Shown piece by piece: positions 21,835 to 28,163 of a stretch of DNA of 64,000 nucleotides. The position numbers and the translations under genes were made by a program. The DNA lies in NCBI GenBank assembly GCA_965208325.1, contig OZ242326.1, positions 3,136,001 through 3,200,000 of the forward strand, written 5' to 3'. Position 1 is the first letter of the stretch; each line of letters starts with the position of its first letter. Under the pieces are notes generated by a model. The model was given only the letters and a program-made list of their open reading frames with translations. It had not been told where the DNA came from and made no database searches. This stretch comes from Candidatus Poribacteria bacterium. Its GTDB lineage: Bacteria > Poribacteria > WGA-4E > PCPOR2b.

Positions 21835-23640
21835 ATGATGGAAAATACCACAATCAATGAGCGGCTGCAAAATTCGATTAACCAACACGGATCAAAGGCG
21901 GCGCTGTCCAGCAAGGTGGATGGGGCGTATCAGGATATCTCCTACGATGAACTTGGGGATCGGGTGAAGCGTCTTTGTTTGGGTTTAATCGAGCTTGGGG
22001 TGCAAAAGGGCGATCGGGTTGCCCTGCTGTCGGAAAATCGTCCAGAGTGGGCAATCACCGATCTCGCCATTCTTGCCGCAGGCGGAGTCAACGTCCCAAT
22101 GTTCTCAACACTGACGCCTCCTCAAGTTGAGCACATCGTGAGGGATTCCGGGGCAAAGATAATCTGTGTTTCCAGTGAAAAACAGTTGCAAAAAGTGGAG
22201 GCTTTCAGAGCGGACATTGACGGCCTCCAACACGTCATCATCTTCGATGCAATAGACTCGGAAAATAGTGGCGGCGTGCTCACATTTAATCAGGTCTGCG
22301 ATTTAGGCGAGAAGGCGGAGGACGGCGATCTGGTTTACCAAAAAGCACGCGGCGCTGTCACGCCTGACGACCTCGCCACCATTATCTATACCTCCGGCAC
22401 AACGGGGCAGCCCAAAGGCGCAATGTTGACTCACAACAATTTCATGTTTAACGTACAGGCGTGTTTCGAGATTGTCGGTTTTGCCGATGAAGACGTATTC
22501 TTGTCTTTTCTTCCATTGGCGCACGTATTCGAGCGGATGGGCGGGCATTATCTGCCGCTGAGTTGCGGCGCGACTGTTGCGTATGCTGAAAGTCCGTTCA
22601 CGGTTGCGCAGAATATGAAGGAAGTTCGTCCCACCATTATGATGAGTGTGCCTCGCCTCTATGAAATGATGCATGAGAAAATTATCCGCTCGGTTCAAGA
22701 GGGGTCATCTTTAAAACAGAAGATTTTCTATTGGAGCGTGGGGGTCGGTGAAAAAGTAAGCCAAGCAATTCAGCAACAGAAAAATACTTCTCCGATTTTG
22801 GGATTAAAGTATGGTCTCGCAAACAAGCTGGTGTTCAATAAACTTCAGAGTGCAACGGGCGGGCGGTTGCGCTTCTTTGTCTCTGGCGGCGCCCCGCTGT
22901 CCAAAACCATTGCGGAATTCTTCCATGCCGCCGGCATCCTGATTCTTGAAGGCTACGGGCTGACGGAGACTTCGCCCGTGATTAGTGTAAACCGCCCGGA
23001 TCAGTGGCGATTCGGCACTGTGGGGACGCAGATTGAGGGAATTGAAGTCAAAATTGCGGAAGATGGAGAGATTCTGTCGCGCGGGCCGCACATCATGCAG
23101 GGTTATTTCAACAAGCCGGAAGAGACGGCTGAGTCTATCGACACCGATGGGTGGTTTCACACAGGCGACATCGGCGAAATGGATGCGGACGGGTTTCTGA
23201 GTATCACCGATCGGAAGAAAAATATCATCGTGCTTTCTAACGGGAAAAACGTCGCACCGCAGCCGATTGAGAATCAACTCATTCAAAGCCGATACATCAA
23301 TCAGGTGATGCTCCTAGGCGATCAACGGAAAAGCATCTCTGCACTTATCGTGCCGAATTTCGATGCGCTCAAAGCGTTTGCCGAGGAGATAGAACTGGAA
23401 GCCCAGGAAGCGGCGGAATTGATCGAGACAAAAGAAATCCGCCAACTCATCCGTAAGGAAATTGAGCAGCTCTCAACAGCGTTAGCCGACTTTGAACGCG
23501 TAAAGATGTTCACGTTGTTAGATAGAGAGTTTACCCAAGAGGCTGATGAGATGACGCCGACACTGAAACTCAAGCGCAAAGTCATACTTGAAAAATACGG
23601 AGATAAAATTGAGAAAATGTACGGCGGAGAGAGCGTTTGA
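21835..23640 (+). CDS. Long-chain fatty acid-CoA ligase (AMP-forming)
   Basis: IIYTSGTTGQPKG, EGYGLTE, GWFHTGDIG motifs; GGAGG RBS places the start at 21835/21838. Confidence 0.92.
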   Translation: MMENTTINERLQNSINQHGSKAALSSKVDGAYQDISYDELGDRVKRLCLGLIELGVQKGDRVALLSENRPEWAITDLAILAAGGVNVPMFSTLTPPQVEHIVRDSGAKIICVSSEKQLQKVEAFRADIDGLQHVIIFDAIDSENSGGVLTFNQVCDLGEKAEDGDLVYQKARGAVTPDDLATIIYTSGTTGQPKGAMLTHNNFMFNVQACFEIVGFADEDVFLSFLPLAHVFERMGGHYLPLSCGATVAYAESPFTVAQNMKEVRPTIMMSVPRLYEMMHEKIIRSVQEGSSLKQKIFYWSVGVGEKVSQAIQQQKNTSPILGLKYGLANKLVFNKLQSATGGRLRFFVSGGAPLSKTIAEFFHAAGILILEGYGLTETSPVISVNRPDQWRFGTVGTQIEGIEVKIAEDGEILSRGPHIMQGYFNKPEETAESIDTDGWFHTGDIGEMDADGFLSITDRKKNIIVLSNGKNVAPQPIENQLIQSRYINQVMLLGDQRKSISALIVPNFDALKAFAEEIELEAQEAAELIETKEIRQLIRKEIEQLSTALADFERVKMFTLLDREFTQEADEMTPTLKLKRKVILEKYGDKIEKMYGGESV

Positions 23641-23941
23641 AAATTCGCCGAATAAGATTTTTGAAATGAATACACGTAAACATCAATTTTTTAGGGCAAC
23701 TATTTTCAAATGGACTCTCACATGTCGTGCGCTTCTTGCCAGCATCATTAAGCAGAGGCCAGAAAAGTTAATTGCGAGCCTGACTCGATTAATATTGTAC
23801 TGCTGCTCGCGCTGCGCTCTCAATTTCCAGACCGTTTGAATCTATTTCAGGCACTGTAGTAAACTCGTTGCGGCTTAGAAGAAGACCATTCATAATTTAT
23901 CGGCTATAACTAAAATCTCTTGAGTAAGGTTAATAGTTCGA

Positions 23942-24619
23942 ATGGCGGTGAACACGATGCAGTACGACAAAAACAAATTCAAAATATATGCGCTGCCGCA
24001 CCCCGCTGTCTTATTAATCTGGATACTGAACCCATTTGTGATGTTCAACGAACTGATTTTGGGCCTACGACTCCCCAAAGTCACATTGGTTGACAAAGAA
24101 AGCAATAAACCTTTGCCGGAACGTACTTACTATCCCTGCCCGCACTGTGCAGTTCTAAATGACACGCGTTGTTGGGCAAGGAGGAATGCCCTTGGTCATT
24201 GGTTTGGCTATATTTGTCCAAATTGCCATCAAATAATTCCCTGCCTATGGAGCGTTTTTAGCCTTGTCATCTTGGCGATTACTTTCCCACTGTGGTATTT
24301 CCCCGCACGATTGGTCCGCCAAAGATGGATTGAGAAAGAAAAAGAAAGATTGGCCGCTGTCCTTAAACGTCCCTTAGTTCAAGTAAAGACCATACATTGG
24401 CTTCTTATCGGAACGTTCATTTGGGGTGTATTCATGTGGATATTTGTGGAGTTTCTGCCGCAGATGAGGCAGGTTTTGAATGGAAAAGAATGGGATTTGA
24501 CAATAATGCTAGTAACGTTGCCAATTTGGTTGTCGGCTGGCTGCGCTTGGGGCTTGTTTATGGGTTTTTGGATGAATAGAAGGGGCAAAAAAGCAAAAGG
24601 AAATTCACCTGTAAAGTGA
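23942..24619 (+). CDS. Hypothetical membrane protein with two CxxC pairs
   Basis: CPHC and CPNC plus several hydrophobic helices. Confidence 0.65.
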   Translation: MAVNTMQYDKNKFKIYALPHPAVLLIWILNPFVMFNELILGLRLPKVTLVDKESNKPLPERTYYPCPHCAVLNDTRCWARRNALGHWFGYICPNCHQIIPCLWSVFSLVILAITFPLWYFPARLVRQRWIEKEKERLAAVLKRPLVQVKTIHWLLIGTFIWGVFMWIFVEFLPQMRQVLNGKEWDLTIMLVTLPIWLSAGCAWGLFMGFWMNRRGKKAKGNSPVK

Positions 24620-24789
24620 ACCGTATGGCTTAGAGCATGTTTTCAATGTAGATAGGAAAAACCGGTTTTTTGTCATTATGACGGTCGAAATCATTGCATT
24701 TTCAAGACATTTACTTCAAGATAGTTTCTCTCGAAGGCAGATTCGGACTGTTCAAAAGTTCAAGAGATGTTTAAGTATGAGAGGAGACG

Positions 24790-25752
24790 ATGCCAACAGG
24801 CCGCATTAAATATTTCAACCGGGACAAAGGCTTCGGATTTATCGCCCAAGACAACGGCGAAGCTGATGTTTTTTTGCACGTCTCTGCCATTAACTGGGCG
24901 GACGACGAGCTAGGCGCAGGGCAACGGGTCAAATACGAAATTACCGAGGGCAAGCGGGGGCTAGTGGCGCGAAACGTTGAGGTCCTGCTTACACAACTTG
25001 AGCAAAAGTGGCTGCGTCAAGGCAAGGCGATTATTCCGCGAGACTACCCAAGATTCGCTTCACGCGAACAAAGCGAAGCCTCCGATGGAGACAATCCGGT
25101 ATCGTTTCAAGAACCGATTCGACCAGCGTCAGTTGCATCGTCTAGTGCGCAGAAATCTGAACAATCTGGTGAACTACCACCTTCGGGGCCGGACGATGAA
25201 GCAGATGCGCTGAATCAGAATTTAGTCGCATCCGATGCTCGGACCGATTCTAGGTCCGACAAACCTGAACGCGTCTCGTTTGGCACTTTATACATGCAAA
25301 AGCAAATCCGGCTCCAAACATCAATGGTTTTTGGGTTGTACAATCACGAGCAGTGCCCTTTGACAATTAGTGAATTCACGCAATCCACGTTTACGTTGCA
25401 AGGAGAAGAAGAAAGCCGGGAAATCCCGATGACGGACGTTAAATATTGTTATAAAGCTGAAGACGCGGATGCTATGTATGCGCTCATGCATTACGATGAG
25501 GAAATTAAATCGCAAAAGTTAAAGCCGATTGACGCTCAGGCGGAATGCTACCAAATCGACACACGGGAAATTCAGCTTGCGCGCAAGGAGGAATACCCCA
25601 TTGAAGTAATTATGCGCGAGGGAGAAATTTTTCGGGGTTTGGTGGATTGGGTCAGCCCATTCGAAATTAAGATAGTTTTGGAAAACGGATCTAAAGTTGT
25701 TGTTTTCAGGCATGCCGTCTGCAAGTTTCAGGCAATTCCGTCCGAAAAATGA
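24790..25752 (+). CDS. Cold-shock domain protein fused to C-terminal Hfq/Sm-like domain(s)
   Basis: RNP1 KGFGFI and RNP2 VFLHV at the N-terminus, then an acidic S/P linker. The C-terminal LARKEEYPIEVIMREGEIFRGLVDWVSPFEI...VFRHAV resembles Hfq Sm1/Sm2 (YKHAI). GAGGAG RBS. Confidence 0.8.
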   Translation: MPTGRIKYFNRDKGFGFIAQDNGEADVFLHVSAINWADDELGAGQRVKYEITEGKRGLVARNVEVLLTQLEQKWLRQGKAIIPRDYPRFASREQSEASDGDNPVSFQEPIRPASVASSSAQKSEQSGELPPSGPDDEADALNQNLVASDARTDSRSDKPERVSFGTLYMQKQIRLQTSMVFGLYNHEQCPLTISEFTQSTFTLQGEEESREIPMTDVKYCYKAEDADAMYALMHYDEEIKSQKLKPIDAQAECYQIDTREIQLARKEEYPIEVIMREGEIFRGLVDWVSPFEIKIVLENGSKVVVFRHAVCKFQAIPSEK

Positions 25753-25761
25753 ACGAGGGAT

Positions 25762-25966
25762 TAGGGCGTGTTGACATTTGGCATCCCTTAGGTTGAATTG
25801 AACGGTTAATCGGCGGTCCCTATCTAGTACAAAGGAATCTATTGTAACACAATCTGTTAGATTGTGATCCGAGCCCGCAAACTAACAGTTTGCGCTACTT
25901 ATATCAGATTATCCAATGGTGACAACGTTTGCCGAATCAGTAGCCTCAAAATGTCAACAGAACGTA
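25762..25966. mobile_element. MITE-like element with an internal REP-like doublet
   Basis: Ends TAGGGCGTGTTGACATTT ... AAATGTCAACAGAACGTA (TGTTGACATTT inverted, TA flanks). Internal palindromes CACAATCTGTTAGATTGTG and CGCAAACTAACAGTTTGCG followed by CTAC. Confidence 0.55.
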
Positions 25967-25991
25967 GAGTTTCACTGAACATCTAGAGATT

Positions 25992-26633
25992 ATGCGACCG
26001 ATAGAGATTCAGAAGGATAACGAAGACGCCAGCTCAAACTTGGTAGTGAAACAGTATCGGCATCTAATGGAAGAGGTGCATCTTGAGACTCAGCGTTTGT
26101 ACGAAGCGCGAGGCAACTTCCCGTGTCCTTCCACCTGTTATGATTGCTGCCGCAACACGGCGACGATGTTAATCAGTGAAATAGAAGGGCAAGACCTCAA
26201 GGTAGGACTTAAAAAACACCCTCCAGAGATACAGGAGCATATCCGCAAAAAAGCCGAGCGCTCCGTTCGAAAGCTTGAGCAAATCGGATTTTCCCATGAA
26301 CGGATGACGAGGGACGCTGGCATGGAATCGGTCGAAGTGTTGAAAGGGAAACCGGAGGCGGAATGCCCGATGCTTATTGGGGGAGTCTGTTCGGTTTACG
26401 AACATCGTCCATTGATTTGCCGGGTGTGGGGATATCCAATCGACAATGGGCGTGAATTGGCGTGTTGCCGCAAGACATTTATCGGTCAACGCCGACTTTA
26501 TAAACCCATTGATTACGCGCGTTACTGGGACACGTGCCGAGATTTAAGCGAAAAGATTGGAGCGGAAGAGAAAACACCTAATGCTTATCTTGTGGTTCGG
26601 TTGCTCTCTGAAGAAGGGGTGACAGAAGGGTGA
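25992..26633 (+). CDS. YkgJ family cysteine cluster (CxxCxxCC) protein
   Basis: CPSTCYDCC and CPML..VCSVYEHRPLICR motifs. Confidence 0.85.
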   Translation: MRPIEIQKDNEDASSNLVVKQYRHLMEEVHLETQRLYEARGNFPCPSTCYDCCRNTATMLISEIEGQDLKVGLKKHPPEIQEHIRKKAERSVRKLEQIGFSHERMTRDAGMESVEVLKGKPEAECPMLIGGVCSVYEHRPLICRVWGYPIDNGRELACCRKTFIGQRRLYKPIDYARYWDTCRDLSEKIGAEEKTPNAYLVVRLLSEEGVTEG

Positions 26634-26668
26634 GCAGGCGTGTAGCTTTAGGTACCTGCGGATTTGTA

Positions 26669-26989
26669 TTATGACGGTGGATTGGCGGGGGTTGTGTTAA
26701 GAGATCGCAGCAATTCAAAGGGATAAATGCCCGTTTTGTGTCCGTCGTTCCAAGTCAAGCGGATTGCATACCTGCCAACGGGTTGGATATTAACGACTTT
26801 AAGATTCTCAAATAAATCTTCGGAAGGCAACACCCGCAGCGGGTTTTCATTCTCTCGGACTGCTTTACAGCGGGCGCACGGGCACTTTTGCCGCAGCAAC
26901 TTATGGGAATGCTCGCTGAGATGGCCGTCGCTCCATTGTATGGTTATGCCGTCTAAAAAACGCTTTATTTGGGTTGGCTTATATATCAT
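26669..26989 (-). CDS. DUF971 (GBBH-N-like) protein
   Basis: IQWSDGH, LRQKCPCARC, VGRYAI...WNDGH.TGIY...LR motifs. Confidence 0.9.
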   Translation of the reverse strand: MIYKPTQIKRFLDGITIQWSDGHLSEHSHKLLRQKCPCARCKAVRENENPLRVLPSEDLFENLKVVNIQPVGRYAIRLTWNDGHKTGIYPFELLRSLNTTPANPPS

Positions 26990-27100
26990 GGTTTACACCA
27001 TTTTATGATATGCGGCACAATAACTTCAGAAACGGGTGTTATCCCAGTCCTGAAGTCATCAAAAGCTGAAATCCCAACCCGTCTGAAATTTTGTGAGCAA

Positions 27101-27364
27101 CTATTGCGATTGGAAATAATCCGCGTTGATTTGGGTGAAGTGTTCCCATTCTTCCGGAACATCTTCGTCCATGAAGATTGCTTCGACCGGACATTCTGGT
27201 TCACATACACCGCAATCAATACATTCTTCCGGATCGATAAAAAGCTGCTTGGCGTTTTCAAAGTCCTCTGACTGTGATGTAGGATGAATGCAGTCAACAG
27301 GGCATACGTCCACGCAGGCGGTGTCCTTGACATCAATGCACGGTTCGGTGATGACGTATGTCAT
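27101..27364 (-). CDS. 7Fe-type ferredoxin, copy 3 (CIDCGVCEPECP)
   Basis: [26 protein letters not shown]...[17 protein letters not shown], FdxA-like; AAGGAGG RBS. Confidence 0.95.
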   Translation of the reverse strand: MTYVITEPCIDVKDTACVDVCPVDCIHPTSQSEDFENAKQLFIDPEECIDCGVCEPECPVEAIFMDEDVPEEWEHFTQINADYFQSQ

Positions 27365-27503
27365 AGATGATAAATCCTCCTTGTGAACTGGGTTAATTAT
27401 TTTTTTTCAGAACGTGAGCGTAATAGGGTAATCGTGCTTCTAACTCCACCTCTACTTTTGAGCGTAAATCTGTACCCGTCTGAAATTTTGTGAGCAGCTA
27501 TCG

Positions 27504-27761
27504 CTACTGGAAATAATCCGCGTTGATTTTGGTGAAGTGTTCCCATTCTTCCGGAACATCTTCGTCCATGAAGATAGCTTCGACTGGACATTCCGGCTCA
27601 CATACAGCGCAATCAATACACTCTTCGGGATCGATATAAAGCTGCTTAACGTTTTCGAAGTCCTCTTCCTGAGATGTAGGGTGAATGCAGTCAACAGGGC
27701 ATACGTCCACGCAGGCGGTGTCCTTGACATCAATGCACGGTTCGGTGATGACGTAAGTCAT
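27504..27761 (-). CDS. 7Fe-type ferredoxin, copy 2 (CIDCAVCEPECP)
   Basis: Same motifs as the other copies; AAGGAGG RBS. Confidence 0.95.
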   Translation of the reverse strand: MTYVITEPCIDVKDTACVDVCPVDCIHPTSQEEDFENVKQLYIDPEECIDCAVCEPECPVEAIFMDEDVPEEWEHFTKINADYFQ

Positions 27762-27899
27762 AAATGATAATCCTCCTTGTTAACTGAATTGATGATTTTT
27801 CTTCAGACCGTGAGTGCGATAGGATAATTGTGCTTCTAACTCCACCTCTACTTTTGAGCGTAAATCTGTACCCATCTGAATTTTTGCGAGCAGCTATCA

Positions 27900-28163
27900 C
27901 TACTGGAAATAATCCGCGTTGATTTGGGTGAAGTGTGCCCATTTTTCCGGGACATCTTCGTCCATGAAGATTGCTTCGACGGGACATTCCGGTTCACACA
28001 CATTGCAATCAATACATTCTTCGGGATCGATATAAAGCTGCTTGACGTTTTCAAAGTCCTCTGCCTGAGATGTCGGGTGTGGGTAAATGCAGTCAACAGG
28101 GCATACGTCCACGCAAGCGGTGTCCTTGACATCAATGCACGGCTCAGTGATGACGTAAGTCAT
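27900..28163 (-). CDS. 7Fe-type ferredoxin, copy 1 ([12 protein letters not shown], 2-aa insertion)
   Basis: Same motifs, with CIYPHPTS in place of CIHPTS; AAGGAGG RBS. Confidence 0.95.

Follow-up and report, generated by a model that had tools for sequence, protein, structure and literature searches.

How might a protein that joins a cold-shock domain (CSD) to two copies of the predicted Hfq fold engage RNA, and does it build a ring? Sm/Hfq proteins are understood as rings, with their RNA sites lying between subunits. The question is raised by a gene in the window, the 64,000-nucleotide stretch of Candidatus Poribacteria DNA analyzed here, for which the earlier note had proposed a composite RNA chaperone whose trimer could form a pseudo-hexameric ring. 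The gene itself, a 320-residue reading frame at 24790-25752 (+) carrying a CSD and two Hfq/Sm-fold domains, is borne out by Pfam, HHalign and AlphaFold. Contigs of four public sequencing runs from three studies cover it without insertions or deletions (one run, X1, possibly derives from the same DNA). The architecture of CSD, linker and two Hfq-fold repeats is real; its parts and immediate surroundings are:

24790..25752, + strand: whole gene, 320 residues, CSD, linker and tandem Hfq-fold module; PF00313 present in 119 of 120 listed homologues.
24790..24987, + strand: CSD, residues 1-66, with intact RNP1 and RNP2 (Pfam E 8.7e-21; five-strand model; conservation).
24988..25047, + strand: post-CSD motif, residues 67-86, LLTxxEQKxLRQGKxxIPR, with a predicted helix at 69-76 (mean conservation 0.78).
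25048..25272, + strand: linker, residues 87-161, predicted disordered and variable, here acidic and S/P-rich (sequence composition, model).
25273..25455, + strand: Hfq-fold repeat 1, residues 162-222 (profile match, fold model, conservation).
25456..25551, + strand: structured connector, residues 223-254, with a helix at 223-232, a short helix and an extended stretch.
25552..25737, + strand: Hfq-fold repeat 2, residues 255-316, with an FRHA motif that is YKHA in Hfq (Pfam, HHalign, Foldseek).
25759..25967, no strand assigned: MITE-like insertion of 209 bp that separates the gene from ykgJ and is bounded by terminal inverted repeats.
25992..26633, + strand: YkgJ-like CxxCxxCC gene, a conserved downstream neighbor (PF03692 E 1.7e-4, just below the cut-off).

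The N-terminal CSD matches PF00313 over residues 3-64 with 74 bits against a cut-off of 27, and is modeled as a five-strand OB fold. RNP1 and RNP2, reported earlier, read KGFGFI and VFLH in the sequence, and 118-120 of 121 family rows retain K7, Y8, K13, F17, F28 and H30. A complete CSD with both motifs is shared with the CspA family (PF00313). Unlike CspA-type proteins, which stand alone at about 70 residues, this CSD carries a 250-residue extension, and it scores 69 bits against a CspE cut-off of 120. In the full-length model, the CSD is followed by a short helix (69-76), a low-confidence linker (pLDDT below 50 across 85-159) and then the module. The post-CSD motif is restricted to the main Poribacteria clade. 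The linker is the least conserved region (mean top-residue frequency 0.43 versus 0.82). Its description as long, acidic and S/P-rich fits the window copy, where residues 91-160 contain 15 D/E, 6 K/R and 21 S/P, but does not carry over to many relatives, whose linkers are not acidic.

Repeat 2 is recognizable by sequence at sub-threshold scores. It matches the Pfam families Hfq_1 (E 3.5e-4) and Hfq (E 4e-3) over residues 258-313, both below cut-off, and the gene stays below all Hfq family thresholds (17-21 bits against PF17209/PF21979, cut-off 27; 15 bits against TIGR02383, cut-off 61.7). An alignment by eye had placed this segment on E. coli Hfq without gaps across Sm1, and profile comparison agrees: E. 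coli Hfq matches the repeat-2 profile at an HHalign value of 96.6%, ungapped over Hfq 7-45 and then with a 2-residue insertion. Repeat 1 (162-222) has no Pfam match and therefore needed separate testing. Its profile matches that of repeat 2 at 96.7% (E 3.7e-10, 141-row alignment), as compared to 5.1% for the best of 30 column-shuffled controls and 2.9% for a reversed control; with Poribacteria-only profiles, at an Neff of about 2, the value is 0.2%. Against E. coli Hfq, the repeat-1 profile reaches 76.8%.

The structural predictions point the same way for both repeats. AlphaFold2 models residues 160-320 (pLDDT 96.5, pTM 0.91) as two α-β1-5 repeats joined by the structured connector, with the Sm fold (α1 plus β1-β5) in each. 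All 25 rows listed by Foldseek for this model are Hfq chains, the best with an rmsd of 1.1 Å over 59 columns. VIA-align places repeat 1 on Caulobacter Hfq with a Z of 7.7 (caution level 8) and an rmsd of 1.1 Å over 63 residues, and repeat 2 on Sm, Lsm and RimP chains with Z values of 5-7.2, below the same caution level. Because the top seven rows for repeat 1 are all Hfq and span the whole domain, this repeat is degenerate in sequence only. The proposal of a second, more degenerate Hfq copy thus stands for the fold (rmsd 1.1 Å, HHalign 96.7%), and the degeneracy does not extend beyond the sequence. The fold searches run gave no solved chain whose alignment spans both repeats; the closest sequence matches of the module are MJ1435 (E 1.5e-5) and Caulobacter Hfq. 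The fold of both repeats is common to Hfq and to the mobile-clade Hfq-like proteins (PF17209, TIGR02383, PF21979), exemplified by cyanobacterial Synechocystis Ssr3341 (3hfo) and archaeal M. jannaschii MJ1435 (2qtx/5dy9). Unlike Hfq, a single Sm domain of about 70 residues, the window protein contains two repeats, a 33-residue structured connector and a CSD.

Sm rings assemble via contacts between β4 of one subunit and β5 of the next, and a ring requires both β4-β5 interfaces of each subunit (PMC3710371). In a tandem protein, one such interface would therefore have to form within the chain and its reverse between separate chains. Mean-field DCA was applied to 442 rows (Neff 248; rows with more than 25% gaps and duplicates dropped), a shallow and kin-biased alignment, with interface faces picked by hand and p values derived from random blocks. 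With these hand-picked faces, the inner block (repeat1-β5/repeat2-β4) contains 5 pairs with z>3 (p=0.002), and the ring-closing block contains 2 and is not enriched (p=0.19). The ring-closing-block pair H308-M214 adjoins the T215-H308/Y219-V304 ladder and for this reason probably belongs to the inner interface. The strongest pairs are K218-E279 (z 9.0), K218-E277 (8.9) and S199-C253 (7.8), followed by M214-C253 (4.2), M214-H308 (4.1), Y219-F281 (4.1), C253-F291 (3.8) and F181-V303 (3.8). In Hfq numbering, K218-E279 corresponds to S60-I30', K218-E277 to S60-N28', Y219-F281 to T61-L32', F181-V303 to I24-Q52' and M179-F306 to V22-Y55'. As a ring needs both interfaces and only the inner one covaries, a trimeric pseudo-hexamer is unsupported.

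The chemistry of the exposed edges bears on the same point. At Hfq positions 52/53/55, the hydrophobic fraction is 0.18/0.25/0.06 in repeat 1 and 0.99/0.66/0.99 in repeat 2; at positions 61/63 it is 1.00/0.95 in repeat 1 and 0.10/0.07 in repeat 2. The β5 face of repeat 1 and the β4 strand of repeat 2, which form the inner interface, are hydrophobic. The outer β4 edge of repeat 1 instead presents E211 and P213 (Hfq M53/Y55), and the outer β5 edge of repeat 2 is polar (K312, Q314). Taken one by one, four subfamilies (CSD-fused proteins, CSD-less paralogues, distant representatives and Desulfobacterota-type proteins) each show this asymmetry. A hydrophobic residue occupies position 213 in 2/120, 0/20, 9/124 and 7/119 of the subfamily rows, and position 306 in 120/120, 19/19, 124/126 and 119/119. 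In all four, the outer edges are polar, with Hfq Y55 replaced by Pro or Glu (Pro in 111 of 120 Poribacteria rows) and T61/V63 by Asp, Lys or Arg. The sole exception is position 211 (and 304) in the Desulfobacterota-type proteins, with 211 hydrophobic in 55 of 119 rows. Deeper outer-face positions are still hydrophobic (V22/I24 in repeat 2, L26/L32 in repeat 1), and the V43 position is acidic in both repeats and does not discriminate between the interfaces. In Hfq, Y55 sits in the inter-subunit surface, the Y55A substitution destabilizes the hexamer, and the triple interface mutant D9A/V43R/Y55W folds as a monomer (PMC9228748). As the outer edges lack the residues with which Hfq builds its ring, the module likely binds RNA as a single chain, and the pseudo-hexamer put forward in the earlier note is probably wrong.

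In the same vein, we consider it unlikely that the protein trimerizes into a pseudo-hexameric, Hfq-like ring bearing three tethered CSDs and, in this form, takes over from Hfq the phylum-wide role of general sRNA-mRNA chaperone. Such a ring would draw on the Hfq fold of both repeats, and a single cross pair, I271-H186 (z 4.1), is consistent with the ring-closing face. Set against it are the lack of covariation enrichment at that face as a whole and the Glu/Pro and Asp/Lys residues of the outer β4 and β5 edges in every subfamily.

Where, then, would RNA bind? In the Hfq uridine pocket, F42 and H57 come from one subunit and Q8, Q41 and K56 from its neighbor; the distal site uses Y25, Q52, S60 and T61, and the rim R16, R17 and R19 (PMC4152361). 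The most conserved residues of the family (Y199, K214, R253, Y/F291, R307 and H308) map to the uridine pocket at the inner interface. After two glycines, the order of conservation is K214, H308, R253 and Y199, then L261, R307 and Y/F291. Like Hfq, the module family keeps equivalents of F42 and K56 in both repeats and of H57 in repeat 2: the F42 position is Tyr or Phe in both repeats family-wide, the K56 position is Lys (96%) in repeat 1 and Arg (85%) in repeat 2, and H57 is retained in repeat 2 only (94%). The repeat-1 Q8 position is Gly or small (Gly in the window copy), and a connector Arg at position 253 is 92% conserved across the family. By mean-field DCA, position 253 covaries with 199, 214 and 291, and position 214 with 308.

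Conservation of the pore residues F42 and K56 in both repeats, R307 included, also favors the pseudo-hexameric ring; R307 (Hfq K56) would belong to the ring-closing pocket by the definition in PMC4152361. The other RNA surfaces of Hfq argue the opposite. Distal Y25, I30, K31 and Q33 and the annealing rim R16/R17/R19 patch are unconserved family-wide. The Y25 position is G/A/E in repeat 1 and mostly Thr in repeat 2, and S60/T61 are replaced by K218/Y219, which covary with E279/F281; the resulting K218-E279 and Y219-F281 contacts would fill the distal pocket. Unlike Hfq, the family thus combines scores below all cut-offs with polar ring-closing edges and unconserved Q8, distal Y25/K31 and rim arginines.

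The reading that best fits these data, to which we give roughly an even chance, is a ring-less, monomeric RNA binder with two heads and a single pocket. A linker predicted to be flexible would connect an intact CSD to a pair of predicted Hfq-fold domains, which likely pack like neighboring Hfq subunits and are likely unable to close a ring. The module would then be closed into a wedge equivalent to two subunits, and its single composite pocket would comprise Y199 and K214 of repeat 1, Y/F291, H308 and perhaps R307 of repeat 2, and connector R253, which would take the place of Hfq Q8 (Gly here). This pocket and the basic surface would grip short single-stranded RNA, probably U-rich or 3'-terminal, and the CSD on its tether would engage adjacent structured parts of that transcript and melt them. 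The protein might thereby regulate or chaperone particular RNAs post-transcriptionally, in a manner more like that of FljA than that of a general sRNA matchmaker. That the packing is intramolecular and the pocket single is suggested by covariation, Hfq numbering and the single-chain pTM.

The window copy departs from this pattern. It has S199, M214 and C253 in place of Y199, K214 and R253, and its module has a net charge of -8, as compared to a family median of +3. In the two-headed binder, the pocket would be eroded in this copy and the CSD would carry most of the RNA binding; with these pocket residues lost and the module acidic, the window protein may rely on its CSD. The CSD-less paralogue in the same genome (G000:C1:810106-810894) would, by contrast, keep the full pocket. 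At position 25430, T, a Met codon, is read in X1 (possibly the source) and X4, which come from two samples in a single study, and A, a Lys codon, in X8 and X13; M214 versus K214 therefore looks like a strain variant. Assembly error as the origin of M214 is disfavored, as Met was read in two samples of one study and Lys in two other studies.

Loss of Y199 and R253 is coupled. In a quick tree covering 63 of 125 rows, both are lost jointly in the window sub-clade and in at least one separate clade, and the starred branches force at least four changes of the loss label. Among 120 CSD-fused rows, R253 is lost alone in one and Y199 alone in none. One alternative to an RNA-binding role for this pair is a cation-π plug, which could fill the pocket in place of RNA. 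Extended to the whole module, this becomes a structural or protein-binding adaptor whose pocket is plugged by the connector Arg, leaving nucleic acid to the CSD and, in this lineage, with a link that might exist to the neighboring Fe-S-type genes; we judge it rather unlikely. The strongest covariation of Y199 being with R253, and their joint loss, would fit a direct stacking pair, and the window copy and a second clade have lost both with the gene intact. Net charge across modules spans -11 to +18, and Sm folds outside RNA metabolism are known (PMC3710371), those of MscS or RimP being precedents. The residues that are conserved, however, are those that Hfq uses on RNA, median net charges are +3 to +9, and CSD-less paralogues bear Arg-rich tails.

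A search with the module returned 132 proteins, with a CSD in 119 of the 120 listed; the two that carry an organism in their name are Ca. Poribacteria. The module is present in 146 of 151 genomes of the phylum and in 130 of the 131 of high quality. CSD fusion was confirmed in 41 inspected loci, two of them broken by frameshifts or stops, and four genomes of the same class have the CSD-less form as best match. Gene copies in G001 (L037) and G128 (L051) are broken by stops or a frameshift, for which assembly error is possible. Judged by sequence, the CSD-tandem-Hfq protein is phylum-wide and uncharacterized. It is typical of Poribacteria that live in sponges. The earlier statement that no characterized example is known agrees with the literature, in which titles and abstract openings yielded no tandem-Hfq or CSD-Hfq protein and no description of FljA as an Sm fold. 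The window genome holds two module genes, the CSD-fused window gene and the CSD-less paralogue, which has an Arg-rich N-terminal tail, all six pocket residues and polar outer edges. It also encodes a separate stand-alone Csp (C1:4193980).

No Hfq above the TIGR02383 cut-off was found in any of the 151 phylum genomes; controls passed in 4 of 14. The window genome, where a separate hfq had been suggested as a check, likewise has none above the cut-off, and the phylum appears to lack ordinary Hfq. Five genomes that carry a stand-alone module were checked, and none has canonical hfq. Both absences would suit a pseudo-hexameric ring that replaces Hfq, but absence of hfq is common in bacteria, as the controls illustrate. 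Two of the three out-of-class genomes that lack the module (G002, G004) have Hfq-like frames of 92-104 residues below the cut-off, possibly single-domain Hfq-like proteins.

Beyond the phylum, a profile search gave 507 clusters at 50% identity, with a CSD in 16 of the 150 listed. Among 75 proteins scanned, other fusion partners include a double CSD, XRE HTH, S1, HU, ParB, DnaJ_C, HEAT and GmrSD. That these partners are mostly nucleic-acid-binding domains weighs against the adaptor. Stand-alone modules occur in Desulfobacterota, Ca. Entotheonella, SAR324 and Chloroflexi records (80 of 96 loci kept); Atlas clusters add Myxococcota, Nitrospirota and Deferribacterota as leads, and tblastn of a family member against plasmids gave no match. 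A patchy further subfamily of stand-alone modules within the phylum (L057-L066, frames of 170-280 residues) has closer TIGR02383 scores than the window gene. Some Poribacteria-type proteins have about four tandem modules per chain (L060:1468-3150 (-), P0184, P0191, P0248, P0267, P0272, P0278), and some of these are fused to GmrSD restriction-nuclease domains, S1 or a C-terminal CSD.

The module might also bind RNA or single-stranded DNA as a non-canonical oligomer, such as a domain-swapped or helix-mediated dimer, or close a ring only with a partner or RNA ligand, which we regard as distinctly improbable. Covariation is blind to whether an interface lies within a chain or is swapped between chains, atypical Sm-Sm interfaces are known (PMC3710371), and the HTH, HU, ParB and GmrSD fusions point to DNA contexts. 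Chains with about four modules and the coexistence of two paralogues in the window genome also lean this way. The single-chain model is nonetheless confident and compact (pTM 0.91). Moreover, since the outer edges of the paralogue are also polar, a hetero-ring of the two paralogues is unlikely.

The Sm fold is known as a fused module in SmAP3, in a Zn-finger-Hfq on Thermococcus plasmids and in the Sm domain of MscS (PMC3710371). Each of these has a single Sm domain, and the portion of PMC3710371 covered here names neither a tandem Sm protein nor a CSD fusion. A closer analogue may be FljA (PF03614), the repressor of phase-1 flagellin, which is reported to prevent translation of fliC mRNA (PMC2652032). 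The top Atlas matches of the module are PF03614 clusters (scores 0.93 and 0.92), whose recognition value is low and which serve as a lead only; a plasmid gene downstream of flagellin matches PF03614 at E 7e-64. Both halves of all five FljA-family sequences score against the repeat-2 HMM, and the FljA alignment matches repeat 2 at an HHalign value of 84.8%. Because both halves match, FljA would seem to be a regulator of mRNA that is similar in length and likewise made of two Hfq-like units in tandem. Unlike the module, FljA has two halves that both resemble repeat 2, with no collinear two-repeat alignment, and unlike the window protein it lacks the YE..FRH signature and a CSD. Its tandem is probably an independent duplication, making FljA an analogue rather than a member of the family. 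PF03614 has no match in the window genome and none in 141 family rows at E<=0.01; one of 18 rows matches it at E 0.044. No flagellin gene was seen by eye among the ORFs flanking the window gene at 16-34 kb, the five nearest of which were Pfam-scanned. FljA (PF03614) sequences lie at L068:5093-5617 and in L069-L072. FljA homologues (about 33% identity) occur on some 800 plasmid records, many of about 110 kb and non-mobilizable, and are annotated only as "transcriptional regulator".

A wider reading, which we advance tentatively and rate somewhat short of an even chance, is that these proteins are an undescribed, widespread class of ring-less Hfq derivatives. Each would be a monomeric two-Sm wedge with one pocket completed by a connector arginine. 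Attached to CSD, S1, HTH, HU and nuclease domains, the wedge would act as an interchangeable unit for recognizing RNA, and in a phylum that lacks Hfq it would be the principal riboregulator of the Sm type. FljA would then represent an independently evolved, characterized example of this design. If so, one subunit interface has been kept within a single chain and the other discarded, so that the Sm fold works without a ring, and the module would be a natural minimal model of one Hfq pocket. Poribacteria and other lineages with no detected hfq would also have a candidate riboregulator, and FljA, a genetically defined mRNA repressor, would gain a probable structural family. What is new here is that the most conserved residues map to the Hfq pocket at one interface, that the outer edges are polar and that a trimeric pseudo-hexamer is not supported.

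The classic context of hfq is miaA/hflX (PMC11607428), and unlike hfq the window gene is not beside either; in section 7 and the supplement text of PMC11607428, Poribacteria are mentioned only for FlgV. Of 41 CSD-fused loci in other genomes, 23 have a YkgJ-like CxxCxxCC gene immediately downstream, and 36 have ykgJ, DUF971 or a ferredoxin beside the gene. In G028 (L054:2357-3997 (-)), the CSD-module gene and ykgJ share one 547-residue frame, through fusion, a lost stop or assembly error. The 36 of 41 loci and the single frame with ykgJ would suit an adaptor for Fe-S-type proteins, but the stand-alone members elsewhere (Desulfobacterota) have different neighbors. Since kin share synteny and the neighbors of stand-alone members differ, the neighborhood shows no function.

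The 209-bp MITE-like insertion between the gene and ykgJ is not part of the CSD-Hfq system. Its ends, TGTTGACATT ... AATGTCAACA, are terminal inverted repeats, a second copy lies at G000:C1:912864-913072 (95% identical), and contigs from sponge metagenomes contain many copies of its left end. In the same-genus genomes G038 and G007, the spacer between the gene and ykgJ is short. Rfam gave one chance-level match only on 23600-27200 (E 0.17), and promoter and terminator scans gave no signal above shuffle level.

Three near-identical tandem genes of 87, 85 and 87 residues (window 27101-28163, minus strand), which we take from their Cys motifs to be ferredoxin-like, adjoin a DUF971/GBBH-like_N gene (26669-26989). 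Upstream, a 225-residue Cys-cluster membrane protein (window 23942-24619, plus strand) is found only here and in G003, and in G038 and G007 an AMP-binding ligase lies directly upstream of the gene. Near stand-alone modules (L073-L152), a gene that by eye resembles a receiver domain lies on the same strand in 41 of 80 loci, mostly of Desulfobacterota.
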